This document shows, piece after piece, positions 7,345 through 53,468 of a stretch of 56,583 nt of DNA. This DNA is from an uncultured Lachnospiraceae bacterium. Its GTDB lineage: Bacteria > Bacillota > Clostridia > Lachnospirales > Lachnospiraceae. The notes beneath the pieces are model-generated. The model made no database searches. It was not told the origin of the DNA and worked only from the letters and a program-made list of their open reading frames with translations. The position numbers and the translations under genes were made by a program. The DNA lies in assembly GCA_964470725.1 (NCBI GenBank), contig CAYYEB010000001.1, forward strand, positions 1 through 56,583, given 5' to 3'. Position 1 is the stretch's first letter. Each line of letters begins with the position of its first letter.

Positions 7345-7418
7345 GTCGCCGGCAAAACATATCCTCCGGCGCTCAAAATCGTTTTTGATTCGCGTCCGGA
7401 GGATAGTTTTGCCGACTC
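7345..7418 (+). repeat. Palindromic intergenic repeat family C, copy 1 (~75 bp)
   Basis: cggcaaaacatatcctccggcgc-tcaaaatcgtttttga-ttcgcgtccggaggatagttttgccg hairpin; matches 41540..41620 and the reverse complement of 42978..43059. Confidence 0.88.
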
Positions 7419-9425: not shown

Positions 9426-9490
9426 AACAAAAGAGATTTTCCGGTGCTCAAAATCCTTTCGTGCTTGCATCTGAGAGGCATTTTACCAAC
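9416..9490 (+). repeat. Repeat family C, degenerate copy
   Basis: tcgccgataaaac...ttttccggtgctcaaaatc...ttttaccaac aligns with the family C core; overlaps the stop codon at 9425. Confidence 0.55.
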
Positions 9491-11932: not shown

Positions 11933-12062
11933 GTTGACGATTTGAGCAGAAGATCGGCCTTCTGTACTTGATTCAATATGGAAGTGAGAGTCAGGTTACC
12001 TTAAAATAGATGAAGCTTATGATCATATTCACAGAAAGATGCGATGCAATAAGGGGTATAAC

Positions 12063-13703
12063 ATGATTTCTATTGGTTCAACCAAAAAAGTGTATAAGGA
12101 GCCGGATCCGGCATCACTTATTTTTACAAGGTGGATGCTCTGGCTCTATCTGCTGGCGTTCTGTGTGATCTATCCGTTTTATTATGAGGATCACTATTAC
12201 AATATGGGGGATGCAAAATGGCATTTCTTCAGGACCATCACATTTTACTGGACCCATGGGGATTTTATCATTCCCGGCCTTCTGATGATTGTACTTGCAT
12301 TTTCCGTCTGGTATCTGATCACCCTCGGAGTGAGGGGAGAACTCCGGGAGAAGATGCACTGCTCTGTGACGGACAGATTTGTGCTGGTATATCTGATCCT
12401 GGTGACAGTATCGGCACTGCTGGCGCCCGATAAGACCAATGTGCTGTGGGGATTTACCGGCTGGTACATGGGATATATGGCACAGCTGTCTTTTGTTCTG
12501 CTGTATTTTCTGGTTTCAAGGTTCTGGTTGGCGGATGGCGCGGGAATTTTTCTGGCACTGGCAGTTTCGGAAATCACGTTTATTCTGGCAATTCTCAATC
12601 GTTTCAAGATTGATCCGCTGGGAATTTATGATGGAAATATTGACGGCACGCATTATTTTGTATCGACATTCGGAAATACAACATGGTATGGCTGTTATCT
12701 CACCATTATGCTGGCCATCGGGGTGTATTACTTCTGGGATACGAAAAAGCTCTGGATCAAACTGATGGCGGGGGTGCTGGTTGCGACCGGCTTTATGACT
12801 GCGGTGACGACGGACTCAGATGCAGTATTTGTGGGACTCTTTGGAATTCTGTCGGCGCTCTTTTTCTTTTCCTGTAAAGACGCACGGCATTTTAAGAATT
12901 TCTGGCTGGTCATTGTGATCGGGCTGGCGTCGTTTAAGGCAATCGGAGTCCTGCGGCTGCTTTTTCCGAAACAGAGCGTCTGGCTGCATGCAATTCCGCT
13001 CTTTTTATCAGTGGGAAATGGGATGTGGGCGGCTCTGGCAGCGGCCGTTGCTATTTACATTCTTGTGTGTGCTCTGGACCGGGAAGAGAAGCTGAATTTC
13101 CGGGTGATCGGAGCGTTTCGCTGGATTTACATCGGACTGGTCATCGCCGGTATTACACTTTTGGTTGTGTATATAGTGCTCAATACGAACGGACTTCTTC
13201 CTGAAAGCCTCAGCAGTGACAGTAATTACCTGCTCTGGAACGACAGGTGGGGAGACAACCGGGGCGGCAACTGGACCGTATCCGTGCTGTCATTTTTCCG
13301 CACATTTAAGGATAATCCTTTATGCTTTCTTTTTGGGGCGGGACCGGATAATTTTCATGTGACGGTGTATAAATACTACAATGCGCGGCTGCATCAGATC
13401 GCCTATAATGCGACATTTCCCCACAATGCAAATGCGGTTCTGACCTGTGCCCACAACGAATGGCTGTGCGCCTTTATGAATTACGGACTGCTCGGAGGTA
13501 TTGCATATCTTGGAATCTTCGTGTCGGCTGTACGCAGGTTTTCCAAAAAGAGCAAGGATTGTCCGCAGGCGGCCGCTGGAGTGATTGCGGTCATTGCCTA
13601 TTTTGCATTTGATTTCTTCTGCTACCAGCAGATCATCAGCACTCCGCTCATTTTCATCGTGATCGGTGCAACGGAGTATCTGGTGACACAGTCAAAGGCA
13701 TAA
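12063..13703 (+). CDS. O-antigen ligase-like (WaaL/Wzy_C) polytopic membrane protein
   Basis: ~13 TM; STFGN, LFGAGPDNF, AHNEWL....YGLLG motifs; ATG 12063 follows AAGGGG. Confidence 0.78.
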   Translation: MISIGSTKKVYKEPDPASLIFTRWMLWLYLLAFCVIYPFYYEDHYYNMGDAKWHFFRTITFYWTHGDFIIPGLLMIVLAFSVWYLITLGVRGELREKMHCSVTDRFVLVYLILVTVSALLAPDKTNVLWGFTGWYMGYMAQLSFVLLYFLVSRFWLADGAGIFLALAVSEITFILAILNRFKIDPLGIYDGNIDGTHYFVSTFGNTTWYGCYLTIMLAIGVYYFWDTKKLWIKLMAGVLVATGFMTAVTTDSDAVFVGLFGILSALFFFSCKDARHFKNFWLVIVIGLASFKAIGVLRLLFPKQSVWLHAIPLFLSVGNGMWAALAAAVAIYILVCALDREEKLNFRVIGAFRWIYIGLVIAGITLLVVYIVLNTNGLLPESLSSDSNYLLWNDRWGDNRGGNWTVSVLSFFRTFKDNPLCFLFGAGPDNFHVTVYKYYNARLHQIAYNATFPHNANAVLTCAHNEWLCAFMNYGLLGGIAYLGIFVSAVRRFSKKSKDCPQAAAGVIAVIAYFAFDFFCYQQIISTPLIFIVIGATEYLVTQSKA

Positions 13704-13725
13704 ATCTTTTGTGATCATGTTAAGA

Positions 13726-13971
13726 CCTCGCACCATAAGAGCCGCCCTGTCCCTGTGTTCAGGAATCGATACGTAAGCCAACTCTAAGAAAAGTTCGCCA
13801 TTGCGAAAAGCCGGTGAAAATCCGCCCGACTCACCTGGTATCTCGCTCACCGAAAGTTCCCGACGTTCACACAGCGGATTTTCACCGAACGCAACAGCGA
13901 ACTTTTCAAGAGTCGCTAACGCATCTCATATTCACACAGGGACAGAGCGGCTCTCATGACGCTCGAATATG
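13726..13971 (+). repeat. Long palindromic repeat family B, copy 1 (~245 bp)
   Basis: Nested inverted repeats (gagccgccctgtccctgtg / cacagggacagagcggctc; gaaaagttcgc / gcgaacttttc; cggtgaaaatccgc / gcggattttcaccg); near-identical to the reverse complement of 15123..15366. Confidence 0.92.
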
Positions 13972-14149
13972 CCATGAAAAAGCTACTGTTCAAAATAATG
14001 CGAAAAAGTGGCAGTGAAATAAGAAGCTGAGTGTCATAAGATTTTTATGGTAAATGATACGGTGTTGTGATACGATAACCACGGTTATGAAAACTGCGTG
14101 CGGACATGTATCACGTTCTGCCGCTTGGCACATTCTTGGGAGGCTTACA

Positions 14150-15022
14150 TTGAAGGAATTTAAACCTGTAAAGGAAGGCAAAGTACGTGAAATTTATGAC
14201 ATCGGCGACAACCTGATTATGGTTGCGACGGACCGGATCTCTGCATTTGATGTCATTTTGAAAAATAAGGTGACAAAAAAGGGAACTGTTCTGACACAGA
14301 TGTCCAAATTCTGGTTTGATTATACAAAGGATATCATTCCGAACCATATGATCAGTGTGGACGTAAATGATATGCCGGAATTTTTCAGACAGCCGCAGTT
14401 TGACGGAAACAGCATGATGTGCAAGAAGCTGAAGATGCTTCCGATTGAGTGCATTGTCCGCGGATATATCACAGGATCAGGCTGGAAGAATTATGTTAAG
14501 GATGGCACAATTGCCGGACTGAAACTTCCGGAAGGTCTCAAGGAATGCGGAAAGCTTCCTGAACCGCTCTATACACCATCCACAAAGGCTGAGATCGGTG
14601 ATCACGATGAGAATATCAACTATGAACAGTCCATTGATGTTCTGGAAAAGATTTATCCGGGCAAGGGCGAGGAATACGCAAAGAAACTTCGTGATTCCAC
14701 AATTGCGCTTTATAAGAAATGTGCAGACTATGCACTGACACGGGGCATCATCATCGCTGATACCAAATTTGAATTCGGTCTGGATGAAAACGGCAATGTA
14801 GTGCTTGGTGATGAGATGCTGACTCCGGACAGTTCCCGTTTCTGGCCGGTGGAAGGATACGAAGAGGGCCACGATCAGCCATCTTTCGATAAGCAGTTTG
14901 TCCGCAACTGGCTGAAAGCACATCCGGACAGCGACTACAACCTGCCGCAGGATGTTATTGACAAGACGATTGCAAAATACAAGGAAGCATACAAGCTTCT
15001 GACGGGCAAGGAAATTCAGTAA
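14150..15022 (+). CDS. purC: Phosphoribosylaminoimidazolesuccinocarboxamide (SAICAR) synthase
   Basis: GKVREIY, ATDRISAFD, IECIVRGY.TGS, ADTKFEFG, DEMLTPDSSRFW, SFDKQ; TTG 14150 follows GGGAGG (ORF-track extension from 14054 is likely spurious). Confidence 0.96.
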   Translation: MKEFKPVKEGKVREIYDIGDNLIMVATDRISAFDVILKNKVTKKGTVLTQMSKFWFDYTKDIIPNHMISVDVNDMPEFFRQPQFDGNSMMCKKLKMLPIECIVRGYITGSGWKNYVKDGTIAGLKLPEGLKECGKLPEPLYTPSTKAEIGDHDENINYEQSIDVLEKIYPGKGEEYAKKLRDSTIALYKKCADYALTRGIIIADTKFEFGLDENGNVVLGDEMLTPDSSRFWPVEGYEEGHDQPSFDKQFVRNWLKAHPDSDYNLPQDVIDKTIAKYKEAYKLLTGKEIQ

Positions 15023-15050
15023 TCAAAATTTAGTTTTACCCAAAAATCAT

Positions 15051-15100
15051 AAAACCTCAGAATCCCTTTCCACGAGTGTGAAGGGTATTCTGGGGTTTTT
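15051..15100 (+). terminator. Intrinsic terminator after purC
   Basis: aaaacctcagaatccctt...aagggtattctggggttttt stem-loop with T tail. Confidence 0.75.
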
Positions 15101-15122
15101 ATAATATGATAACGGCTTGTCA

Positions 15123-15366
15123 CATATTCGAGCACCAGTATTCCCGCTCTGCTCGGTGTGAATATGAGATGCGTTAGCAACTCTTGAAAAGTTCGATGTT
15201 GCGTTCGGCGAAAATCCGCTGTGTGAACGTCGGGAACTCTCGTTGAGCGGGACGTCAGGTGAGTCGGGCGGATTTTCACCGGCTTTTCGCAATGGCGAAC
15301 TTTTCTTAGAGTTGGCTTACGTATCGATTCCTGAACACCGAACAGAGCGGGGATACTGGTGCGAGG
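15123..15366 (-). repeat. Long palindromic repeat family B, copy 2 (inverted relative to copy 1)
   Basis: Reverse complement matches 13726..13971 in the core; the outer stem differs in sequence but still pairs (ccagtattcccgctctgctcggtg / caccgaacagagcggggatactgg). Confidence 0.92.
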
Positions 15367-15417
15367 GACTGACAAGGAAAGATGACCCAGGAAATCATAA
15401 ACGCGCCCTTGACAATA

Positions 15418-15463: not shown

Positions 15464-18400
15464 ATGGATCGAAAGCCGATGCCATTCAGAGAGGCATTTC
15501 CGAACTTAAAACTGGATGAACGGGTGGAAAAATATCTGGACATCATCGTTGTCAACCGCGTTTGTGTCAACGGATCGCGGACCAGAATGCATGTCTATAT
15601 CACTGCGACGAACTGGATCCGGAAATCCTACATCTATCAGATTGAGGATGCAATTGCGGAGCAGATCTTCGGCCATGTGGAAATGGAAGTCAAGATCATT
15701 GAGCGCTTTGAGCTCTCCGTGGCCTATACACCGGCAAAATTCTATGATGTCTACAGGACCAGTATGCTCCTGGAACTCAAGCAGGTGAGCCCCCTTGTAC
15801 GGCAGAGCTTTCTCCATGCGGACATCACTTTCCCGGATGAACATACCATCCGGGCTGAAATGCCGGATACGATTGTCAATGAGGATCGGAAGGAAGCGAT
15901 ACGGGACTATCTGGAAAAAGTGTTCCGTGACAGAGCCGGCTTTCAGGGAATTTCCGTGGATATTGAACTTGTAGAGGAGAAAAAGAAGGAGAAGGAAGAA
16001 CTCTTTGAGGATGTGGACCAGAAGATCGAACTCAAGATCGCTAACGTCCTTCGCCGCAACTCCCGTGCAAAAGAGGAAGTCAAAGAGGAAAAGAAGCTCC
16101 CGGTTTCCGAGGAGCAGAAGGCACAGAGAAAGAAATTTGTCCTGAATGCCAACGATCCGACCGTGATCTACGGCAAGAATTTCGATTCCGAGCCGGAACC
16201 CATAGAGAGCATCGGCAATGATCCGAGAACGGTAACCATTCGCGGAGAGGTATTCCAGGCTGAGGAACGTGAAACAAGATCGGGAAGAATTATTTTTACG
16301 GTCTCCCTGACGGACTATACAGACTCATTACGCATGAAGCTGTGGTTCGATAAGGAAGAGGAAGAGGCGTATACTTCCGTGTTTAAGAAGGGCGCCTGCT
16401 TTATCGTGCGCGGTATGATGGACTTTGATCCCTTCGATCGGGAGCTTATGATCAAGTCTGTGTTCGGTATCAAGAAGATTCCGCCATTTAAAGAAGAGCG
16501 AAACGACACGTCACCGGAAAAACGTGTGGAGCTTCACTGTCATACCAAGATGTCCGATATGGATGCGGTTTCTTCCGCAACGGATATCATCAAACAGGCC
16601 TACCATTTTGGCATGAAGGCTCTTGCCATTACCGATCATGGTGTGGTGCAGGCTTTTCCGGAGGCACATAAGGCACTCGGCGGCAAGGGAGGCATTCCGA
16701 AAGATGCCGACTTCAAAGTCATTTACGGAATGGAAGGATACCTTGTCGATGATATGAAAAATATTGTTACGGGTCCGCTGCATGGAAACATTCTTGACGA
16801 TGCCGTTGTCTTTGATGTAGTGACGACGGGGCAGAGCCCTTATAACCACGATATGATCGAACTCTCGGCAATTAAGGTGGAGAAGGGCCAGCTGAAGGAT
16901 GAATATACCACTCTCGTCAATCCGGGTCGTCCGATTCCGTTTGCCATGCAGACGGAAACCGGAATCAACGACAACATGGTTGCGGATTCTCCGGATATCG
17001 GAACGGCGGTGAGGGATTTCCTGAAATTTGCCGGAGATCTTCCGCTTGTGGCATATGATGCCGATATGGCGGTCAACTTCCTGATGGCCGCATGCAAAAA
17101 GGAAAATATTAAGGTAACTCTTACGGATGCGCAGATCGATGAACTGGTCCGGGGAGTCGATGAGGAAGAATCCGAAGAGAAGAAACAGGAAGAAGAGCAG
17201 CAGAAAGCTGAAGAAAATGCAAAGGAAGAACAGCGCCTTGTTGAACTGAAGGAGCGTGTCGCGAAGGCGAAAAATCACGGTGAAGAGCTTTCCGAAGAGG
17301 ATAAAGCCGCGGCCCGCGCAGCCGGAATGAAAGTGACGGAAGCCGAGGAGGAAGCAGCACAGGAAGCGGAGATGAAGGCAGCTGAGGCGGAACTTGCCGA
17401 AAAGGAAAAAGCGGAACAGGAAGCCGCAGAGGGAACTGCGGAAGAGAAGTCCTGGCCGGCGGCATCAGATGAATCAGCTGCAAAAACGGTCGTTGCTTCT
17501 GCAGAAGAAACAGTTTCTGCTGACAAAGTTCCGGAAGAAGATTCCTGCGAAAAAGAGAAAATAAAGCCTATTGCCCCGGAACACCGCAGAGAAGTCATGG
17601 AAAAACTTGGAATTGCGGATCACACGATCGATGGCATGACGCTTCTGCGCCATCATACGTATCTTGATATTCCGGCCATGGTCCGCTTTCTGATTCCCGA
17701 AATGGGAAGAATCCGCTTCAAGACCATTGTCAAACATCTGAAACTGAACTGCCGGGACGATATGCGTGCACAGCCGAGAGCGGAAGCCATGGCGCTCGCC
17801 TGGACAAAGTTCCAGAAAATGATGGAGGAACGGGATATCCATACCTTCCGGGAACTCAACAGCTGCGGTATCGTCTCTCCGGAACGAGCGAGAAATCTGC
17901 CCTACTATCACATTATCATTCAGGCACAGAACGTGGATGGCAAGTACAACCTGTACCGTCTGGTCTCGGAGTCGCACCTGCACTATTTTAAACGAAGACC
18001 GCTGATTCCTCGTTCCCTCTTAAATGAAAAGAGAAAGGGACTGATTCTCGGATCCGCCTGCTCGGCAGGCGAACTTTATAAGGCAATTCTGGCGGGAGCC
18101 TCAGATGCAGAACTTGCCCGGATTGTGGAATACTACGACTATCTGGAGATTCAGCCGACAGGCAACAACCACTTTCTTCTGGAGGATCCGCGCAGCGGAA
18201 TCAAGACGGAGGAGGATCTTCGGGATATCAATCGCAAGATCGTAAAGCTGGGCGAAGAATTTCACAAACCGGTCTGTGCGACCTGCGACGTGCATTTTCT
18301 GAATCCGGATGATGCGATTTACCGCTCCATTATTCAGGCGGGACACGGATTCAAGGATCCGAAGCAGCCGCCGCTTTATCTTCACACAACGGATGAAATG

Positions 18401-20422
18401 CTGAAGGAATTCAGTTACCTCGGAGAGAAAAAGGCGCATGAGGTTGTCATTGAAAATACAAATAAGATAGCGGATATGATTGAAAACATTTCGCCGATTT
18501 ATCCGGACAAATGTCCGCCTTCCATTCCGCATTCGGAGGAAGATCTTCAGAAAATGTGCTATGACAAGGCGCATCGCTGGTATGGAGATCCGCTGCCGGA
18601 TATCGTAAAGGCGCGTTTGGACAAGGAGCTGACCTCCATTATCAAAAACGGATACGCCGTTATGTACATCATCGCGCAGAAACTTGTGAAGAAATCCAAC
18701 GAAGACGGTTACCTGGTCGGATCCAGAGGATCGGTCGGTTCATCATTTGTCGCGACGATGGCGGACATCACGGAGGTCAATCCGCTTCGCCCGCACTATC
18801 GCTGTACAAATCCGGATTGCCTCTACAGCGACTTTGACTCGGAAGAGGTCATGCAGGCACATATGGATGGAATCTGCGGCTGTGATATGCCGGACAAAGT
18901 CTGCCCGAAATGCGGTCAGCCGATGACGAAGGACGGTTTCGATATCCCGTTTGAAACGTTCCTGGGATTTGCCGGAAACAAGGAACCGGATATCGATCTG
19001 AACTTTTCCGGTGACGAACAGAACGTGGCACAGCAGTATACGGAAGTTATTTTCGGGAAGGGACAGACCTTTAAGGCCGGAACCATCGGTACGGTCGCCG
19101 ACAAGACGGCATACGGCTATGCAATGCATTACTTTGAAGATAAGGGAATTTCAAAGAGAAGCTGCGAGCTGGAACGTCTTTCACAGGGGTGTGTCGGTGT
19201 CAGAAGGACAACCGGACAGCATCCGGGAGGCGTTGTCGTTCTCCCCAAGGGGATGGATATCAACTGGTTTACACCGGTGCAGCATCCGGCAAACGATGTG
19301 AATTCACCGTTTATTACGACACATTTTGACTATCATTCGATCGATTCGAACCTTTTAAAACTCGATATCCTCGGACACGATGATCCGACCATTATCCGTA
19401 TGCTTCAGGATCTGACGGGGACGGATCCTCATGATGTCCCGCTTGATGATAAGGGTGTACTTTCACTTTTTTCGGGAACGGAGGCCCTCGGGATCACTCC
19501 GGAGGATATAGACGGGTGTGAGCTTGGAACATTGGGTGTGCCTGAATTCGGAACACAGTTCGTCATGGGAATGCTCAAGCAGACCCATCCGAAGACATTT
19601 TCCGAACTCATTCGTATTTCGGGACTGTCACACGGCACGGATGTGTGGCTCAACAATGCTCAGTATTATATCGAAAAGGGATACTGCACGCTGCCGACGG
19701 CTATCTGCTGCCGCGACGATATCATGGTCTATCTGATCAACAAGGGTCTCGACAATGAGCATGCGTTCAAGATCATGGAATCCGTGCGAAAGGGCAGAGG
19801 TCTTACGGAAGAACAGAAGAAGGAAATGAAAGATCACGGGGTGGAGGACTGGTACCTGGAATCCTGCCTTAAGATCAAGTACATGTTCCCGAAGGCCCAT
19901 GCTGCGGCCTATGTCATGAATGCGTTCCGGATCGCGTACTATAAGATTAATTACCCGCTTGCCTATTATGCGGCATACTTCAGCATCCGTCTGAAGACTT
20001 TTGACTATGAGACCATGTGTCAGGGGCGGGAAAAGCTGGAATATTATGCAGATAAAATCAAGAAAAATCCGCAGCCTTCGGCACACGAAACGGCGATGCT
20101 CGATGATATGCGTCTGGTGCGGGAAATGTACGCCCGCGGTTTCGAGTTCTGCAAACTGGACATTTACCAGGCGAGTGCAAAGCGTCTGAAAATCGTGGAC
20201 GGAAAGCTGATGCCGCGCCTCAACTGTATTGCCGGGCTCGGCGATGCACAGGCGGAGGCAATTGAACGGGAAGCGAAGAAGGGACCGTTCCTTTCAAAGG
20301 ATGATTTTAGAGACCGGACAAAAGTCTCAAAGACGATCATTGATCTCATGGATGAGTACGGAATCCTGGGAGACATTCCGGAATCCAACCAGATCTCTCT
20401 GTTCGATCTGGTGGAAAAATGA
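15464..20422 (+). CDS. polC: DNA polymerase III PolC-type, with degenerate 3'-5' exonuclease and acidic insertion
   Basis: OB fold, PHP (VELHCHT, AITDHG, ATCDVH), VGSRGSVGSS, Zn finger, PDIDLNF, LKLDILGHD, KIKYMFPKAHA; AAGGAG SD. Confidence 0.97.
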   Translation: MDRKPMPFREAFPNLKLDERVEKYLDIIVVNRVCVNGSRTRMHVYITATNWIRKSYIYQIEDAIAEQIFGHVEMEVKIIERFELSVAYTPAKFYDVYRTSMLLELKQVSPLVRQSFLHADITFPDEHTIRAEMPDTIVNEDRKEAIRDYLEKVFRDRAGFQGISVDIELVEEKKKEKEELFEDVDQKIELKIANVLRRNSRAKEEVKEEKKLPVSEEQKAQRKKFVLNANDPTVIYGKNFDSEPEPIESIGNDPRTVTIRGEVFQAEERETRSGRIIFTVSLTDYTDSLRMKLWFDKEEEEAYTSVFKKGACFIVRGMMDFDPFDRELMIKSVFGIKKIPPFKEERNDTSPEKRVELHCHTKMSDMDAVSSATDIIKQAYHFGMKALAITDHGVVQAFPEAHKALGGKGGIPKDADFKVIYGMEGYLVDDMKNIVTGPLHGNILDDAVVFDVVTTGQSPYNHDMIELSAIKVEKGQLKDEYTTLVNPGRPIPFAMQTETGINDNMVADSPDIGTAVRDFLKFAGDLPLVAYDADMAVNFLMAACKKENIKVTLTDAQIDELVRGVDEEESEEKKQEEEQQKAEENAKEEQRLVELKERVAKAKNHGEELSEEDKAAARAAGMKVTEAEEEAAQEAEMKAAEAELAEKEKAEQEAAEGTAEEKSWPAASDESAAKTVVASAEETVSADKVPEEDSCEKEKIKPIAPEHRREVMEKLGIADHTIDGMTLLRHHTYLDIPAMVRFLIPEMGRIRFKTIVKHLKLNCRDDMRAQPRAEAMALAWTKFQKMMEERDIHTFRELNSCGIVSPERARNLPYYHIIIQAQNVDGKYNLYRLVSESHLHYFKRRPLIPRSLLNEKRKGLILGSACSAGELYKAILAGASDAELARIVEYYDYLEIQPTGNNHFLLEDPRSGIKTEEDLRDINRKIVKLGEEFHKPVCATCDVHFLNPDDAIYRSIIQAGHGFKDPKQPPLYLHTTDEMLKEFSYLGEKKAHEVVIENTNKIADMIENISPIYPDKCPPSIPHSEEDLQKMCYDKAHRWYGDPLPDIVKARLDKELTSIIKNGYAVMYIIAQKLVKKSNEDGYLVGSRGSVGSSFVATMADITEVNPLRPHYRCTNPDCLYSDFDSEEVMQAHMDGICGCDMPDKVCPKCGQPMTKDGFDIPFETFLGFAGNKEPDIDLNFSGDEQNVAQQYTEVIFGKGQTFKAGTIGTVADKTAYGYAMHYFEDKGISKRSCELERLSQGCVGVRRTTGQHPGGVVVLPKGMDINWFTPVQHPANDVNSPFITTHFDYHSIDSNLLKLDILGHDDPTIIRMLQDLTGTDPHDVPLDDKGVLSLFSGTEALGITPEDIDGCELGTLGVPEFGTQFVMGMLKQTHPKTFSELIRISGLSHGTDVWLNNAQYYIEKGYCTLPTAICCRDDIMVYLINKGLDNEHAFKIMESVRKGRGLTEEQKKEMKDHGVEDWYLESCLKIKYMFPKAHAAAYVMNAFRIAYYKINYPLAYYAAYFSIRLKTFDYETMCQGREKLEYYADKIKKNPQPSAHETAMLDDMRLVREMYARGFEFCKLDIYQASAKRLKIVDGKLMPRLNCIAGLGDAQAEAIEREAKKGPFLSKDDFRDRTKVSKTIIDLMDEYGILGDIPESNQISLFDLVEK

Positions 20423-20456
20423 GAAAATGAAAATTCGGATATAATCGCTATGCCAC

Positions 20457-20611
20457 ACAGGGGAGCAGGTCATGGCCTGATTGGCCCGGGCGTCCGAGCG
20501 ACGCCGGTTATTAATGAATGCAAGCCTTTAGGCGCCGCATGAATTTAGAACCGCTGCGAGAGCGAGCGAGCGGGAGCGTCCCGGATCAACAGGCCATGAC
20601 CTGATCCCCGT
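20457..20611 (+). repeat. Repeat family A, copy 2
   Basis: Near-identical to 112..266; terminal stem caggtcatggcctg / caggccatgacctg. Confidence 0.9.
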
Positions 20612-20646
20612 CAACTTTGAACTATTTTTTACGGGAAGTATAGGCT

Positions 20647-27600: not shown

Positions 27601-27673
27601 GTCGTTGGAAAAATATATTTTCCGGTGCTTAAAATTGTTTTTGATTTGCGTCCGGGAGATGTATTTTCCTGAC
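27601..27673 (+). repeat. Repeat family C, degenerate copy
   Basis: ggaaaaatatattttccggtgcttaaaattgtttttgatttgcgtccgggagatgtattttcc aligns with the family C core. Confidence 0.7.
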
Positions 27674-39348: not shown

Positions 39349-39474
39349 AAAAATTGCCTTTCTATTTATAATTGCCTTTCTATTGTTTTGAAAAAATTTC
39401 CATATGCTCATCATACACACTGCAGGCGTGAACGGCAATGAGGATGTCGTTACTGTTGAGACATAACTCCAGGT

Positions 39475-39500
39475 GCGGGCCTCAAATCATGACCTGTATA
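39475..39500 (-). repeat. Truncated remnant of repeat family A (terminal arm only)
   Basis: gcgggcctcaaatcatgacctgt vs gcgggtctcaactcatgacctgt at 40290 (21/23 identical). Confidence 0.6.
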
Positions 39501-39683
39501 TCGTAGGAGTGAACAGAAACAGGATGTCCGGTCAATTTGTAAAATGTGCTCTCCGGGTGGAATCATCAAGAGCAAAATGATAAGATAAGAAACAACCGGC
39601 AGATATGACGGGATTCTTTTTATAGAAGTATCCGGGACATGAGGGAGGAACTTCATGTCCTTTCAGAAGGGAGAAATTTTACA

Positions 39684-40265: not shown

Positions 40266-40289
40266 TCCATGTGAATTAGTACAATGGTA

Positions 40290-40445
40290 GCGGGTCTCAA
40301 CTCATGACCTGTTGTTCCGGGACGCTCCCGCTCGCTCGTTCTCGCAGCGGTCCTAAATTCATGCTGCGCCTAACGGCTTGCATTCATTAATGACCGGCGT
40401 CACTCGGACGCCCGGAACAATCAGGCTATGAGTTGAGACCCCTGT
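40290..40445 (-). repeat. Repeat family A, copy 3 (inverted)
   Basis: Reverse complement matches 112..266; terminal stem gggtctcaactcat / atgagttgagaccc. Confidence 0.9.
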
Positions 40446-41539: not shown

Positions 41540-41620
41540 ATGTTCGTCGGCAAAACATATCCCCTGGCCCTCAAAATCGTTTTGGATTCGGGTCCAGGGG
41601 ATAGTTTTGTCCGACTCACA
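41540..41620 (+). repeat. Repeat family C copy
   Basis: gtcggcaaaacatatcccctggccc-tcaaaatcgttttgga-ttcgggtccaggggatagttttgtccgac. Confidence 0.88.
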
Positions 41621-42977: not shown

Positions 42978-43059
42978 AATGTGAGCTGGAAAAACTACCC
43001 CCTGGACGCGAATCGAAAACGCTTTTGAGCGTCGGGGGATATGTTTTGACAGCGAACAT
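42978..43059 (-). repeat. Repeat family C copy (inverted)
   Basis: Reverse complement atgttcgctgtcaaaacatatcccccgacgctcaaaagcgttttcgattcgcgtccagggggtagtttttccagctcacatt matches 41540..41620. Confidence 0.85.
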
Positions 43060-44326: not shown

Positions 44327-45712
44327 ATGCCCCATCTTTTTAATGTAGTGCCGGAAAACTTTTTCAGTGTTCTGGCGTCACCGGGAAAAATTGCATACTG
44401 GGACTGCATCCTGCGGATTTTCGATATTACGTCAAGTCAGCTTTCATTCGGAGTGGAACGGGATGTGCTTGTTGACGATCTCGAATATTACTTCAGCAGT
44501 TCAATGTCGGCGGACCTGGAGGAGGAAGATGCCGGGTCGCTGTCACCACGGGATAAGGCGAACTTTATGCTGCGCCGGCTTGAGGGGTGCGGCTGGATTT
44601 CGGTAGATGTGGATCACAGCTATGTGCAGAGAGTGAATTTTCGTGATTATGCCATTGATATCATTAAGACACTCCGCGGAATTTCGGAAGGGAAAAAGAC
44701 AGAATATCAGGGCTATATTTACACGATTTATAATCTCTGTCGTGCGAAGGATCTGGCGGGTGTCGGCCTTCTGGAAATTGTGAAAAATACGGATGCTCTG
44801 ATCACATCTTTGAAGAGCCTCAGTGCCAATATCAAAAATTATATTGATGATCTGACAAAGCACAGCTCGGTCGCGGAAATTCTGGATGCGCTTTTAAATG
44901 ACTATTATACGAACGTTGTGGATAAGGCTTACCATCGCCTTCTGACGTCGGATAATGTGTCCAAGTTTCGGCCTGTGATCGTGGAAACGCTGGAACGATA
45001 CAGCAGAAGTCCGAAGTTCCTTGAACGCGCCTCGGCTGAAGTTGCCCAGATCAGAGAACTTTCCGTGGAAGAGGCGAAGGAACAGGTTCTGACCATGCTG
45101 CATGAGGTGGTCAACGCCTTCGGGCAGATGGATGAGATTCTTGATGAGATCAATCAGAAGAACACAAAATATCAGCGGGCGGCAATCAATCGTGCGAAAT
45201 TTCTTCTGACCAGCAGTGATGACACACGCGGCCAGCTTCGGAATATCCTGTCCGGCCTCAATGAGATAATTCAGGAACAGAACCTGAATTTCAATGGTAT
45301 TTACGACCTTGAAATGACAGATCAGCTGATTCGGATCTTCTCCTGGTCTTATCTCGACAGCAGTTCTCTCTATGCGCCAATCGAGGGAAAGAAGGAATTT
45401 CATCCTTCATCTCTTCAAGTGACGGAAATTGATGAGAAAACCAGACTTCGCAAGCGCGAGCAGATGAGGAAAAAGATGGAGCGGATTCTGACTCCGGATA
45501 AAATCGGAGCCTATGTGATTTCCTCCCTGGGAGATAAGAAAGAAATGTCGGCTTCTGAAATGGTCAGTGATGAGGAGTCCTTTATCAAACTGATCTATGT
45601 GCGGCTCTATGGACAACGGAAGCATATGCCATATAGAATAGCACTTTCGGATGATGAAATTGAGGTGCACGGATTTCGTTTCCGGGATTTTCAGATCATA
45701 AGGAGGACGTAA
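44327..45712 (+). CDS. jetA: Wadjet kleisin subunit JetA
   Basis: LF..VPENFFSVLAS N-terminus, LRRLEGCGWI winged helix, long helical region; first gene of a four-gene SMC operon. Confidence 0.82.
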   Translation: MPHLFNVVPENFFSVLASPGKIAYWDCILRIFDITSSQLSFGVERDVLVDDLEYYFSSSMSADLEEEDAGSLSPRDKANFMLRRLEGCGWISVDVDHSYVQRVNFRDYAIDIIKTLRGISEGKKTEYQGYIYTIYNLCRAKDLAGVGLLEIVKNTDALITSLKSLSANIKNYIDDLTKHSSVAEILDALLNDYYTNVVDKAYHRLLTSDNVSKFRPVIVETLERYSRSPKFLERASAEVAQIRELSVEEAKEQVLTMLHEVVNAFGQMDEILDEINQKNTKYQRAAINRAKFLLTSSDDTRGQLRNILSGLNEIIQEQNLNFNGIYDLEMTDQLIRIFSWSYLDSSSLYAPIEGKKEFHPSSLQVTEIDEKTRLRKREQMRKKMERILTPDKIGAYVISSLGDKKEMSASEMVSDEESFIKLIYVRLYGQRKHMPYRIALSDDEIEVHGFRFRDFQIIRRT

Positions 45713-45713
45713 A

Positions 45714-46328
45714 TTGGATTTATTTGACGGTATGCTGCAGCGCGATATCGATGAATTTAAACGTGTCTGCAATAAACTGATGGGAATTTGCTTTATTGTC
45801 CGGAAAAATGAACAGACGAAGAAAGATTACTATTTTATTCAAAGACATCAGAAGGTCTTTGAGGAATATCTCGGGGTACTCGGATATGATCTGGAAATCA
45901 ATGATGAATATGGAGTGATCCAGCTGATCAACAGAGAAAACTACAATCATGTGCATTTAAAACTCAATGATTCGATTGTGCTTCTGATCCTGAGAATTCT
46001 GTATGATGAAAAGAAGAGGGAGCTTTCCGTCACGGATGTCGTTGTCAATATCGGAGATATCCAGGAACGATTCCTGAGTCTTAAAATCCGCGACAAGCAG
46101 ATGGATAAGACGGCTCTCAACAATTCACTGCGTGTTCTGCGCAGATATAATCTCATTGAACTTTTGGATAAAAATCTGACAGAAGAGGATGCAAGAATTC
46201 TGATTTATGATTCTATTCTCATGGCTGTGCGGGTAGACGATATCCGACGTGTATCGGAAATGGTAGATAAGTATCGGAAGGGAGGGCATGAAACCGATGA
46301 AGAGACTGCAGAAGATCCGGCTGATTAA
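45714..46328 (+). CDS. jetB: Wadjet KITE subunit JetB (DUF4194-like)
   Basis: 204 aa, YL..LGYDL, SIVLLILRILYDEK tandem winged-helix pattern; TTG start after AGGAGG. Confidence 0.82.
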   Translation: MDLFDGMLQRDIDEFKRVCNKLMGICFIVRKNEQTKKDYYFIQRHQKVFEEYLGVLGYDLEINDEYGVIQLINRENYNHVHLKLNDSIVLLILRILYDEKKRELSVTDVVVNIGDIQERFLSLKIRDKQMDKTALNNSLRVLRRYNLIELLDKNLTEEDARILIYDSILMAVRVDDIRRVSEMVDKYRKGGHETDEETAEDPAD

Positions 46329-49300
46329 CTGGCATCGTTTCACAAATGAGACAATTGAATTCGGAGATGCAACCCTTCTGTCCGGTGAAAACGGTGCCGG
46401 AAAATCGACGATCCTTGATGCGATTCAGTTCGTCATCACGTGCTCCAAGGCAAATTTCAACAAGGCGGCACAGGAGAAGGGAAAGCGGACTCTCAATACC
46501 TATATCCGCTGTAAGACCGGTCGGGAGGATCGTCCCTATGAAAGGACCGGTGAAATCAGTGCGCATGTGTGTCTGGAATTTTATGATGAAGCAAAGCGGC
46601 ATCCGTTTCTGATCGGCGTCGTGATGGACAGCGCCTCCGAGGAGAAGGAACCGAATACAGCCTGGTATCTGATGGAAAAAAGGGAGCTTTCGGACGATCT
46701 GTTCTTTCAGGGTAAGATGATTAAGAGCATTTCCAAATTTCGTTCCACAAATCGTGGGATCCGGCAGTTCTGCCCTACAATTCGGGAAGCCAGAAAGATG
46801 ATTCTGAACCGGTTCGGACGTCTCGATGAAAAATTCTTCACATTGATTCCAAAGGCGCTGGCTTTTAAGCCGATTACGGATATCAAGGATTTTGTCTATT
46901 CCTATGTGCTCGATGAAAAAGAAGTCAATATCGATGCACTCCGGGAAAATGTCAGGAGTTATCAGGATCTGCAGCGTACACTGGCGGATGTGAAACAGCG
47001 CATTTCCGAACTCGAAAAAATTCGGGAAAAATACGAACGTGTGGAGTACCATATCCGTCTCGACCGTGATCAGGAATACTATATCGAGCGTGCGCAGCAG
47101 GATATCTACAGGGAGACGGTGAGAGAGTCGGAGGAGGAGCTTCAAAGGGCGACCCTCGAAGTGGACCGCCTGAACCGGATGAAGATCGATCTGGAGAAGC
47201 AGATTCAGGAAAAAAATCATCTGCTTGAAAATCTTCGTGCAGAGCTGGCGGGAAATGAGGAATACCAGGCGCTGCGTGAGCTGGAAAAAGAGCGGGACAC
47301 CATTAAGATTCAGCTGGAAAAGGACACTGCGGAAGTTGCCGGACTGACGGGACACATCAGAAAAGCGCTCAGGCAGACAGATGTGATCCTGAAAGATCTT
47401 TCTTCTAAGAGCACTGCGAATGAGCAGACACAGAAAACAAAGGAATCCAATCTGCAAAAAGAACATGATAAAAGTGCTGACGATTCCGAAGATATGACAA
47501 TCATCAGAGCTTATCATGACGCTCTTGCGGGCATCAACGAGTATGAAAATCTTGCGGATATAAGGCTCATGGCGGATCAGGTGATCGACTGGAAGGAAAA
47601 ACGCCAGCAGGAACTGCGTCATGAGGAATATAAAATCGAATCGAAGCTGGATGAGGAAAAGCGCACGGCTGAGGAACTGAATGTTCAGATCCGTGAACTG
47701 GAAGCGAAGAGGCTTATTTATCCGAAAAATGTTATAAAACTCAAAACAGCGATTGAGTCACAGTTCCGGAAATCAGGAAGAAAGTCGGAAGTTCACATTT
47801 TATGCGAAATGCTGGAAATCACGGATCCAAAATGGCAGAATGCGGTCGAAGGCTATTTGAATACGCAGCGGTTTCATCTGCTGACGGATCCGACGGACTT
47901 TGACCTTGCACTTTCCGTGTATGAACATCTTCGGAAGAAGGAACGTCTGCAGGGCGTGGGACTGATTAACAGCGGAAAGCTGGAGCAGTACGATGACGCA
48001 CCGGAGGGATCTCTTGCGGAGGTTGTAAAGGGAAAAAGTAAATATGCCCGTTATTACATCAACATGGTTCTCGGCAAGGTGCATCGCTGCGTAAGCTACC
48101 AGGAACTGAAGATGTATCCGGTGTCCATTACAAAGGAATGCATGCGCTATCAGAATCATGTGGCAAGCGCCATCAATCCGAAGATCTTTGAAACGCCCTA
48201 TATTGGTGCGGAGGCCTATAAGATACAGCTTGCCAAGAAGAAGCAGGAAGCTGAGGAACTGCAGGCGGAGATCGCAAAGGATAAGCAGAAAATGAAGGAT
48301 CTGGAGCGCCAGCAGAAGCCTCTTGCAAGTACGGAAGATGTCCGGATCCGCTATGAGATGAGAAGTCTTGAGGAACTCAGAACCCACCGGAGTGCACTTG
48401 ATGACTGCGAGGCGGAAATCAAAAATCTGAAGGCTCATTCCGATTTTCTGGAAAAGCAGATGCGGATTGAATCTTTGGGCCGGGAGCAGGACGCGCTTGA
48501 TAAAAAACGTACGGATACGGTGATGCAGATCGGCCACGTACAGGGCGGAAAAGAATCCGTTTCCGTGAAAATCCGTGAAACAAAAGAACTGCTGAAAGCA
48601 CAGGATGCGCATATCGAAGAGCTGAAAGCTGCTATTGGAGAAGAAGCCGAACATGTGGAAACGGAATATTTGCAGCGGCGCGAGCATACGAAGGCAAAGG
48701 ATCTCGAACAGTTCAAACAGAACTTTGAAAATAACCGCAAGGGAAATCTGACCCGAAAGGCCCAGGCCGAGGATGAGATGGCTTCTCTTATGCGAAAATA
48801 CAAGACGGATCACGATTTCGGCGCGGCGGATTCCCTTGCCGGCTATCCTGATTTTGCGGCGGAGTATGATCGTCTGAAAAATTCCAGACTTCTCGAATAC
48901 GAGGAGAAAGTGGATAAGGCGAGGGAGTCCGCGGAGGAGGAGTTCCGGGAGCAGTTCTTGAGCCGTCTTCAGGAAAATATCAAGGCCGCCCAGAAGGAAT
49001 TCCGGGAACTGAACAAGTCTTTGAGCGAGATCCATTTCGGTCACGAAAATTATGAATTCCTGTATCATGCGAGCAGAAGCCAGAAGAAGTACTATGACAT
49101 GATCATGGATGACTTCAACATCATGGAAGGAGAGTCTATTTTTTCGGGTATCTTTGAGCAAAACCACAGGGAAGTGATCGAAGAACTCTTTGAAAAACTC
49201 TCTCTCGATGATGAGGACAGCGCGAAGACGCTGCAGGAATACACCGATTACCGGACATACATGGATTATGATCTGAAGATCACGTCCGATGATGGCAGCT

Positions 49301-49641
49301 ATATGCTCTATTCAAAGGTGAGCCGGGAGAAGAGCGGGGGCGAAACACAGACGCCGTTCTACATCACGATTGCGGCATCCTTTATGCAGATGTACGGGAA
49401 CAGCATCGGCGGAGACAGTGTCGGGATTGTCATGATGGATGAGGCCTTCAACAACATGGATGACGAGCGCATGAGCGGTGTGCTCTCCTTCATGAAACAT
49501 TCCAACCTGCAGCTCATCATAGCGGCGCCGCCGGATAAAATTCAGTACATCGGTCCGGCGATGGATAAGATCCAGCTGATTATGCAGGATGGAAATGCGA
49601 GCTATGCGGAAGACTTTACGGTAGTGAGGAAAGAAGCCTGA
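46288..49641 (+). CDS. jetC: Wadjet SMC-like ATPase JetC
   Basis: LINWH, Walker A GENGAGKST, FN.AA...RTL..Y, long coiled coils with hinge, DYRTY, KSGGE signature, Walker B MMDEAF. Confidence 0.9.
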   Translation: MKPMKRLQKIRLINWHRFTNETIEFGDATLLSGENGAGKSTILDAIQFVITCSKANFNKAAQEKGKRTLNTYIRCKTGREDRPYERTGEISAHVCLEFYDEAKRHPFLIGVVMDSASEEKEPNTAWYLMEKRELSDDLFFQGKMIKSISKFRSTNRGIRQFCPTIREARKMILNRFGRLDEKFFTLIPKALAFKPITDIKDFVYSYVLDEKEVNIDALRENVRSYQDLQRTLADVKQRISELEKIREKYERVEYHIRLDRDQEYYIERAQQDIYRETVRESEEELQRATLEVDRLNRMKIDLEKQIQEKNHLLENLRAELAGNEEYQALRELEKERDTIKIQLEKDTAEVAGLTGHIRKALRQTDVILKDLSSKSTANEQTQKTKESNLQKEHDKSADDSEDMTIIRAYHDALAGINEYENLADIRLMADQVIDWKEKRQQELRHEEYKIESKLDEEKRTAEELNVQIRELEAKRLIYPKNVIKLKTAIESQFRKSGRKSEVHILCEMLEITDPKWQNAVEGYLNTQRFHLLTDPTDFDLALSVYEHLRKKERLQGVGLINSGKLEQYDDAPEGSLAEVVKGKSKYARYYINMVLGKVHRCVSYQELKMYPVSITKECMRYQNHVASAINPKIFETPYIGAEAYKIQLAKKKQEAEELQAEIAKDKQKMKDLERQQKPLASTEDVRIRYEMRSLEELRTHRSALDDCEAEIKNLKAHSDFLEKQMRIESLGREQDALDKKRTDTVMQIGHVQGGKESVSVKIRETKELLKAQDAHIEELKAAIGEEAEHVETEYLQRREHTKAKDLEQFKQNFENNRKGNLTRKAQAEDEMASLMRKYKTDHDFGAADSLAGYPDFAAEYDRLKNSRLLEYEEKVDKARESAEEEFREQFLSRLQENIKAAQKEFRELNKSLSEIHFGHENYEFLYHASRSQKKYYDMIMDDFNIMEGESIFSGIFEQNHREVIEELFEKLSLDDEDSAKTLQEYTDYRTYMDYDLKITSDDGSYMLYSKVSREKSGGETQTPFYITIAASFMQMYGNSIGGDSVGIVMMDEAFNNMDDERMSGVLSFMKHSNLQLIIAAPPDKIQYIGPAMDKIQLIMQDGNASYAEDFTVVRKEA

Positions 49642-49675
49642 GGAAGAATGTCACACTTACATTTGAGAACACAAT

Positions 49676-50953
49676 ATGAATGAAAAACGATATGACAGTA
49701 AAGTAATCAATCTTCTTTTGGATAAGTATGAGCGAAGCGCTGTATATGCCGGAACGGCAGTGCGGAATCAGTCTGTGGCAGTGATGGTGACAAAGAAACT
49801 TTTCCCGGATTATTTTGATCTGACAAGTACCGCATATGAGCATATGAATGCGCAGATGGAGAATCTGTCCTCAAAAGGTCTTGTGACTTTGTGTTGGAAG
49901 GATCAGAAAAAAGACGGCATTTTGCAGAAGATCCAGCTCAATCTGGATCCGGATAGTCTGAAGAGATCTTATGAATTCGTTTCCCGCAAGACCAGAAGGG
50001 AAAAAGAGCAGGAGGCAGAAACTGTTCTAAATGAATATCGGTGTGTTTTTCCGGAATTTGTCCAGTGGGCAAAGACGCGGCTGCAGAATCATGAAAGCGT
50101 GAAGCAGTATATTGATATCGACCATCCGGAACAGCTGAAAAAGGTTCTTTATCTGGCTCAAAAGATCCAGGAGAATAAAGAGGATATTTTCTTAAGACGC
50201 TTTTCCATAGAAGTTTTTCATGACTCAAAGATTGCAGAGCACGAGATCGGAAGCGCTGTGTCGATTCTGACGCATTTTCAAAATGGAAAGAGTGGGGGTT
50301 ATGAGAAAGAGAAGTGCACGGGAAGGGATAACAGTGTAAGTACACAGGAAGATGTCCAAAATGATTTGACATCTCTTACAACGGATGAAGTCCTGGAAGA
50401 ATATAATATATACAGAAATCCTTCCTGGGTGATGCTGAAGGGATGTGGTGCACCGCTTGATCTTCCGATGGGAGTCGGTATTTCGAATGAAGACATCGAT
50501 CAAATCCCATGGAATACTTCAAACATTCCGGACAGAATCCTGACGATCGAAAATCTGACTTCCTTTCATCAGTGGAATCTGAAAAAAGGAGAAAAAGATC
50601 TCGTAATCTATCTTGGAGGTTATGCGAATCGAGCAAGACGTCAGATGCTTCAGAAACTTCATGAAATTTATCCGAATGCGTTGTATGCGCATTTCGGAGA
50701 TATCGATGCAGGAGGGTTTCGAATTTGGAAACATCTGTGCCAGTCTACAGGTCTTTCGATCAGGACTTATCTCATGGATGAGAAAACATATCTGAAATAT
50801 CTTCCTTATGGAAAAGATCTGACCATGCATGATAAAAGAAATCTTATGCAGATGAGTAAGGATCCGTTCTTTGCAGAGCAGAAGGCGCTTTTTGCATTGA
50901 TGCTGAAGAAGGGAAAGAAACTTGAGCAGGAGTGTATATGTGAGTATGTTTAA
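49676..50953 (+). CDS. jetD: Wadjet Toprim nuclease JetD
   Basis: LLDKYERS N-terminus, S.EVFHDSK, TIENLTSF, YLGGY, HFGDIDAGG (DxD), KLEQE. Confidence 0.88.
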   Translation: MNEKRYDSKVINLLLDKYERSAVYAGTAVRNQSVAVMVTKKLFPDYFDLTSTAYEHMNAQMENLSSKGLVTLCWKDQKKDGILQKIQLNLDPDSLKRSYEFVSRKTRREKEQEAETVLNEYRCVFPEFVQWAKTRLQNHESVKQYIDIDHPEQLKKVLYLAQKIQENKEDIFLRRFSIEVFHDSKIAEHEIGSAVSILTHFQNGKSGGYEKEKCTGRDNSVSTQEDVQNDLTSLTTDEVLEEYNIYRNPSWVMLKGCGAPLDLPMGVGISNEDIDQIPWNTSNIPDRILTIENLTSFHQWNLKKGEKDLVIYLGGYANRARRQMLQKLHEIYPNALYAHFGDIDAGGFRIWKHLCQSTGLSIRTYLMDEKTYLKYLPYGKDLTMHDKRNLMQMSKDPFFAEQKALFALMLKKGKKLEQECICEYV

Positions 50954-53364: not shown

Positions 53365-53437
53365 TAAAACTTAAGGGCAAAACTGTCGAAAGGCAGTGAC
53401 GCAAAACTATAGGGCCTGAAATGGCAGCCAGCTGCAT
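53365..53437 (+). ncRNA. c-di-GMP-I (GEMM) riboswitch aptamer
   Basis: AAGGGCAAA-ACTGTC-GAAA-GGCAGT-GACGCAAA-ACTATAGGGCCTGAAATGGCAGCCAG-CTGCA follows the GEMM consensus (GGCAAA, GNRA-capped P2, GACGCAAA, P3). Confidence 0.9.
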
Positions 53438-53468
53438 TCTATAAAAAGAGTGTGGGCTGGTTTTTTTC
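53428..53468 (+). terminator. Riboswitch expression-platform terminator
   Basis: ccagctgcattct-ataaaa-agagtgtgggctgg-ttttttt; the 5' arm overlaps the 3' end of the aptamer. Confidence 0.8.

Follow-up and report, generated by a model that had tools for sequence, protein, structure and literature searches.

Inverted palindromic repeats around purC in an uncultured Lachnospiraceae bacterium: likely MITE-like elements whose variable outer stems stay paired

In an uncultured Lachnospiraceae bacterium, purC and the terminator-like hairpin behind it are enclosed by two inverted copies of a rod-like palindrome of about 245 bp, whose outer stems differ between the copies and yet are paired in each. 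How do the two arms of such a palindrome change together, and do the repeats explain why purC stands apart from purF, purB and purA? An earlier note, made from the DNA letters alone, had answered the first question with arm-to-arm templated correction or strong structural selection, and for the second had suggested a geometry like that of a non-autonomous composite transposon or an invertible cassette. Here, we examine both within the window, the whole stretch of 56,583 nt that was analysed (Table 1), and in other genomes.

Table 1. Repeats, genes and putative signals around purC, in positions of the window.
Feature	Position	Strand	Basis or remark
Gene for 554-aa membrane-type protein, polysaccharide cluster, upstream of copy A	12039..13703	+	No Pfam family
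Repeat copy A, bulged rod-like palindrome	13726..13971	+	Fold and profile match; candidate ends (no target duplication found)
Copy A outer stem, left arm	13734..13758	+	Copy-specific
Copy A apical loop	13826..13868	+	Superfamily motif in degenerate form, ~30 nt inserted at centre
Copy A outer stem, right arm	13934..13958	+	23/25 complementary (Watson-Crick) to left arm
purC, SAICAR synthetase	14150..15022	+	Pfam (PF01259); 290 aa from TTG start
Terminator-like hairpin 3' of purC (putative)	15051..15100	+	Read by eye
Repeat copy B, inverted relative to A	15123..15366	-	Ends 97 nt before polC start
Copy B outer stem, right arm	15132..15159	-	22/24 complementary (Watson-Crick) over scored part
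Copy B outer stem, left arm	15335..15362	-	
polC	15464..20422	+	Start of polC...purF block

The geometry is as the note described it. Copies A and B flank purC and the hairpin in inverted orientation, 1218 nt apart, and share an inner part of 183 nt at 95% identity. Both fold into long imperfect rods (-104.7 kcal/mol for A and -116.5 for B, with z-scores of -12.1 and -12.3), and none of 200 shuffles folded as well as either. The outer arms that the note quoted are correct and pair as listed in Table 1. Its description of the outer stem as rewritten holds in that the stems differ and are still paired, but it is overstated, the variable arm segments of A and B being identical at 9/15 and 10/15 positions. 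The differences between them are compensated and mostly transversions (8/11 over both arms). Likewise, the outermost motifs are conserved between A and B (10/11 and 7/10 identical) but only about 70% conserved across the family. A terminator scan with a loop limit of 8 nt did not call the hairpin behind purC. Strain assemblies differ from the window just outside the left end of each copy: beside A (13689-13726), strains X2-X4 are about 11-13 nt shorter with several changes, and beside B (15374-15404), 29 nt are replaced by 67 nt in X1, X3 and X4.

The two copies belong to a larger family. A profile search of the 2.21-Mb, 403-contig assembly gave nine near-full and three partial copies, all intergenic, short and non-coding. 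Each copy carries its own outer stem sequence, and the swapped but still paired stem is a family-wide trait, not one peculiar to the A/B pair. Across the outer stems of the nine copies, 203 of 215 paired positions are Watson-Crick; the remainder comprises five G.T and seven A.C mismatches and no transversion mismatch, with four gap columns, three of which come from a contig end. When the seven closest copies are compared, the variable arms are 0.38 and 0.52 identical, the core stems 0.81-0.91 and the loop 0.71. Two-sided changes occur in 42 of 78 pairs of the consensus structure (shuffled mean 21.6, with 0/500 shuffles reaching 42), a covariation score that the tool itself warns is inflated by the relatedness of the copies. 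All four pair types are seen at single stem positions, and differences in the arms comprise 104 transversions and 91 transitions, as against 252 and 445 in the core. Such a combination, all four pair types in transversion-rich arms, is not explained by G.U stepping stones. One further locus of this genome (C62:9023-9141 in G000) is a family copy without its centre, an internal-deletion derivative, and at L067:379-501 a match to Clostridiales-1 RNA directly adjoins another copy (C112).

Could the stems be paired because the rods work as RNA? As functional structured RNAs, whether 3'-UTR stabilisers, RNase III substrates or small RNAs, they would have been kept paired by ordinary compensatory selection. 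Their RNA folds are very stable, their covariation is strong, and copies often begin just past the stop codon of a co-oriented gene, as copy A does 22 nt past that of its upstream neighbour. The bcr1 repeats, moreover, are described as transcribed and as having compensatory changes (PMC3184786). RNA selection, however, predicts tolerance of G.U on one strand, and we see no excess of G.T on either: isolated mismatches in 77 rods number 94 G.T and 114 A.C (p = 0.19, the related copies not being independent). An apparent bottom-strand G.T excess vanished in this larger sample. The frequency of transversion-type swaps also speaks against an RNA role, as does the orientation of the copies, A lying sense and B antisense to their neighbouring genes. 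Searches of the rods against Rfam returned only weak miRNA-hairpin matches far below cut-off, and the apical motif of the wider family reads as a mini-hairpin that has been described for DNA. We consider an RNA function unlikely.

We favour instead, with a probability of roughly 60%, a reading in which A and B are dispersed copies of a likely MITE family in whose arms intramolecular templated repair probably maintains the pairing, purC having likely become enclosed through a local hop or conversion. In this model, a DDE transposase encoded by an insertion sequence (IS) would have spread the ancestors in trans, and the ends of the copies in this genome would since have eroded or be of another IS type. 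Single-stranded DNA at the replication fork would fold back, and template switching or hairpin mismatch repair would carry a mutation in one arm over into its partner. In this way the outer stem, long and perfect, could drift freely and stay paired, while the core sequence and its asymmetric bulges would be kept by selection and by conversion between copies. Of the explanations put forward in the earlier note, arm-to-arm templated correction is thus the one that we infer to fit best, its pattern recurring in all nine near-full copies and in homologues elsewhere.

Occasional copying from arm to arm would fit the transversion swaps, the paired indels and the fact that mismatches do not go beyond single transitions. 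Two considerations weigh against it. Correction would have to be slow, as the strain differences in the stems of A and B are all one-sided: six were counted in four strain assemblies of one study, four creating a pair where the window is mismatched and two breaking one, and no two-sided stem change was caught among them. Blind copying, furthermore, should erase the bulges of the core, and yet the bulges persist, which would call for selection or for conversion between copies. Two alternative sources of arm variation fared poorly. Strain differences, at about 9-12 sites in 490 nt of the elements versus about 12 in 1,861 mostly coding nt, do not require local hypermutation, and derivation of the stems from target DNA was rejected, the arms being homologous and inherited.

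Conversion between copies may also have left a trace at another locus. The copies C18 and C380 share their left flank at 55/55 bases, and strain contigs of X2 and X4 join the C380 arm to the right flank of C18. The cores of the two are 79% alike, with changes matched on both arms. They appear to be two alleles of one locus, a pattern that suggests replacement of the interior in place, although one of them could come from a co-binned sister species (assembly contamination 4.55%). Conversion would explain these two very different alleles as well as the 94% likeness of A and B.

Sequence searches turned up no close relative of the rods in other genomes. BLAST of copy A against 60 relatives gave one weak match of 32 nt, and a three-part pattern matched 5 stretches in the genome collection, 10 among metagenomes and 0 among viruses; we attribute these matches to chance, since none of the 15 fits the profile of the family (best E 2.8). 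With a covariance model built from the nine copies, matches came from 2 of 52 genomes of the genus, weakly, and from 2 of 120 of the bacterial family, G129 at E = 3e-26 and G191 at 5e-16, in a search that scored only 17 candidates per genome of the latter set. These matches have in common an apical motif, AACTCGCTDCGCTCARACA, which occurs exactly in 23 of 251 genomes of the bacterial family, up to 28 times each; the reversed-pattern control gave 0. In the loci of that group that we read, it caps long rods whose bulges form a similar ladder and whose outer stems reach as many as 60-77 perfect pairs. The insertion into the apical loop is seen in the repeat family of the window and in G191. Viral contigs of other groups also carry the motif, in 115 stretches, though not each time within a rod.

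Read on its bottom strand, the motif is a GCGNAGC DNA mini-hairpin, with its variable base at N. That base is T in 89 cases, G in 31 and A in 22, counted with patterns that excluded C; a one-mismatch scan found C at none of 36 sites in G203. Mini-hairpins of the GCGNAGC type are described as unusually stable in DNA and as present where phages and plasmids are primed (PMC13037366). Over two complete genomes, 28 of 39 copies have the motif on the leading strand (p = 0.009, with the terminus assumed at the midpoint and 30 of the 36 G203 sites included), a bias that is inseparable from gene-strand bias (two informative cases). Among 282 clustered ORFs beside 69 distinct motif sites in the viral contigs, no recurrent transposase-like neighbour was seen; the clusters were judged by eye and mirrored related phages. 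BLAST against plasmids gave only matches of 23-41 nt with no informative annotation. In two filamentous-phage-like contigs (L172 and L188), a hairpin whose reverse-strand loop contains TATTAC is found about 50-60 nt from the motif; we take it to resemble a rolling-circle nick site.

The core could also be read as a single-strand DNA signal for priming, SSB exclusion or fork restart, capped by the GCGNAGC mini-hairpin and selected as DNA, with the stem serving only to present it and different IS ends having carried it. In every rod examined in the bacterial family the motif forms the apex, its variable base coincides with the N of a hairpin described at priming sites (PMC13037366), its exact matches in the genomes stand against an empty reversed control, it recurs in the viral contigs, it leans to the leading strand, and the core persists while the ends differ between genomes. 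Against this, an insertion splits the motif, which is also degenerate, in the very family of this genome, 228 of the 251 genomes are without it, and the strand bias carries the qualifications given above. Such a signal seems improbable to us at present. The same low odds apply to a broader proposal: that the rods are widespread, undescribed chromosomal ssDNA elements in which the bulge ladder and GCGNAGC cap would act as a priming or fork-restart signal driving fold-back rewriting of the arms, with varied IS ends recruited to move them, and A and B being a derived branch whose cap has taken up an insertion.

The mobility that the preferred MITE reading supposes is best seen in G129. Five of its nine copies have GTTACWGTTCA-type ends together with exact 8-bp target duplications, the other four not passing; the terminal inverted repeats measure 11-13 bp. 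Here, too, the arms are matched within copies (326/333 Watson-Crick) and 0.61-0.91 alike between them, while the cores of the four copies that carry no insertion are 0.92-0.97 alike. Two of the copies have a common arm sequence (0.91), which indicates that arms are inherited and not taken from target DNA. A 14-mer scan uncovered a 2,272-bp element (L354) with G129-type ends and an exact 8-bp duplication, which encodes a 556-aa DDE_Tnp_IS66 protein. Homologues of that protein (47-52%) stand beside the same end in 2 of 27 IS66 loci of genomes of the bacterial family, in two genomes; with this query, none was found in G000 or in G129, G191, G203, G018 and G079, five genomes that bear rods or such ends. 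A 48-bp G129 element (L312:327-374), likewise an internal-deletion derivative, consists of the two ends only and has a 7-of-8 duplication. Neither of two other candidate sources fits: the classical IS66 loci of G000 and G129 are without GTTAC-type ends, and a three-copy IS66-like element of G129 has other ends and 7-bp duplications.

The copies of our genome are less forthcoming. None of eight shows an exact target duplication, one (C62) has a 7-of-8 match at symmetric offsets, and no common duplication offset rises above noise. GTTAC-type ends were not found on them; their ends are paired, asymmetric and only loosely conserved, at the level given above for the outermost motifs. The rods of G203 have different ends again, with no clear duplication in 22 copies. 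The IS66 link therefore holds for one genome only, G129. No empty orthologous site was seen, strain contigs carrying both A and B and relatives being too diverged.

Two further palindromic families are present in the window. One, with about 60 BLAST places in the genome and GTTACTGTTCA ends, lies at 88-293, 20421-20612, 39449-39520 and 40274-40441; of its 26 end pairs, 7 are flanked by 8-bp duplications that agree at 7 or all 8 positions, the one at 39449-39520 being exact. This family is a MITE; it shares its IS66-type ends with the G129 rods, and its paired stems are copy-specific too. The other is a shorter hairpin with about 105 BLAST places and CGCTCAAAA near its tip, found at 7346-7418, 9429-9477, 27602-27667, 41540-41609 and 42983-43059.

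What, then, of purC? The unit of A, purC and B stands between a polysaccharide cluster and polC. In four of five relatives checked, the polC...purF block is kept on one contig, the genes 11-13 kb apart and purC not among them, and in all five purC is on another contig or far from purF. In the complete genome G035, purC and purF lie at 808 kb and 254 kb. A purC match was found in 43 of 52 relatives of the genus; at the 29 loci examined, several of them cut by contig ends, neither the repeat nor purF, purB or purA within about 1.5 kb was seen. In G015, the closest relative by purC identity (89%), purC stands inside the same polysaccharide cluster, on the same strand and behind an orthologue of the same upstream gene (52.5%), with one extra ORF between them and no repeat. 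Because repeat-free relatives already have purC away from purF, purB and purA, its separation is older than the repeats, and A and B do not explain its location; the arrangement of purC itself is incidental.

The earlier note would have given up its cassette if purC proved to sit in the same position and orientation in relatives lacking the repeats and if copies were so abundant that flanking is expected by chance. G015 shows the first, with the same orientation and the same upstream gene. The second is not what we find. With nine copies placed randomly on the assembly, an inverted pair fell within 1.7 kb in 2.5% of 20,000 simulations, and a pair in any orientation in 4.8%; the closeness of A and B is mildly beyond chance. 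They are also the most alike pair in the family, at 94% versus 54-86% for the other 35 pairs, and closeness together with this similarity fits a local hop or conversion.

It is nonetheless very unlikely that A and B bound a composite transposon or invertible cassette by which purC was moved or is flipped. Their inverted, close and most similar pairing would suit such a unit, both copies lie at junctions that differ from G015, and one X4 contig (depth 17.8) joins 13863 to 15069 on opposite strands. Yet relatives free of the repeat already have purC away from purF, in the same orientation and behind the same gene; the unit has no flanking duplication, and no recombinase is nearby. Close inverted pairs of related rods elsewhere (G173, G189 and G192) often enclose no gene, and the five that we read contain no convincing one. 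As an account of the split between purC and purF-purB-purA, the cassette is not supported. A and B may have had a part in local rearrangement, as both junctions differ from G015. Both copies are present in the contigs of four strain runs of one study and of one more poorly covered run; these are short-word contigs, and the identical stretches of A and B exceed the word length, so that orientation is not readable from them.

Other features of the window may be recorded here. Its gene content suggests a gut firmicute of the Lachnospiraceae type. Within polC, an acidic Glu/Ala/Lys-rich insertion of about 170 aa (17117-17630) is absent in 5/5 relatives and matches no Pfam family. A Wadjet-type locus at 44327-50953 encodes JetA, the SMC-like JetC and JetD, and a c-di-GMP-I riboswitch at 53366-53439 is near GGDEF and EAL genes. 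At the contig end (55965-56564), tandem 24- and 36-nt repeats look, from a reading of the repeats, like a serine-rich repeat surface protein.

The weakest alternative, that a RAYT or IS200-like HUH transposase spread the family as REPIN-type elements, could appeal to the long hairpins with variable, compensated spacers of REPINs (PMC3116915) and to two Y1_Tnp genes in G000, but it is already largely refuted and scarcely credible: neither of these genes has a family copy on its contig, Y1_Tnp has no match in G203 (complete, with 36 motif sites) or G215, the rods have no terminal REP doublet, REP palindromes with a GTAG-type foot are not present at the ends in the family alignment, no RAYT gene flanked by repeats was found, and duplications of 8 bp, as in G129, indicate a DDE enzyme. 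A solitary RAYT-like Y1 protein of 212 aa is encoded at L015:1264-1902; its neighbours are a ComM-like gene and a response regulator, and no repeats were noticed on either side.

Set beside known systems, the family works like a MITE with compensated hairpins of the REPIN or bcr1 kind (PMC3116915, PMC3184786, PMC10969869, PMC3733652). Like the prokaryotic MITEs QMITE2, ERIC and RUP, the rods are shorter than 500 bp, non-coding, intergenic, multicopy and stably folded, and the homologues in G129 bear the hallmarks of MITEs, with IS66-type terminal inverted repeats and target duplications. They differ in that the internal core is conserved while the sub-terminal arms are hypervariable yet perfectly matched, in that the same core has different ends across genomes, and in that the copies of this genome show neither duplications nor recognisable ends. 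Loss of terminal repeats and duplications with age has been described for MITEs (PMC10969869); IS66, Clostridia and Firmicutes do not come up in the main text of that review.

REPINs (Bertels and Rainey 2011, PMC3116915) are likewise dispersed long hairpins, described with common compensatory changes and local clusters, whereas the rods are without the REP doublet and a linked Y1 transposase, measure 240-290 bp and keep their conserved part internal and apical. The bcr1 repeats of the Bacillus cereus group (PMC3184786), compared here by their description, are also a dispersed, mobile-like Firmicute repeat with compensatory changes, but they are 155 bp long and cruciform, with two stem-loops and 5-bp direct repeats, while ours form one rod. 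The apical motif of the superfamily, varying at N, resembles the GCGNAGC mini-hairpins reported for the G4 origin, RSF1010 ssiA and the N4 promoter (PMC13037366); here it caps chromosomal repeats known from sequence alone and is interrupted in A and B. For the arms, the nearest parallel is template-switch correction of stems (bioRxiv 10.1101/2021.04.15.439925), in which a multi-base compensatory change is copied from the other arm; that study, as cited here, concerns RNA genes, and we infer the process for DNA repeats. A literature search, supplements aside, found no published description of such repeats in this group, and the letters of the motif returned four unrelated primer matches only.

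The importance of the family is modest. It records, in many natural replicates, the concerted evolution of palindrome arms in bacteria, and insertions dated by intact 8-bp duplications, as in G129, would allow a direct test of DNA template switching versus RNA selection as the origin of hairpin covariation. For screens of non-coding RNA, the family carries a caution, as very strong covariation occurs here without a G.U signature. Should the apical motif prove to be a single-strand signal, an intergenic motif common to many bacteria and phages would gain a function.
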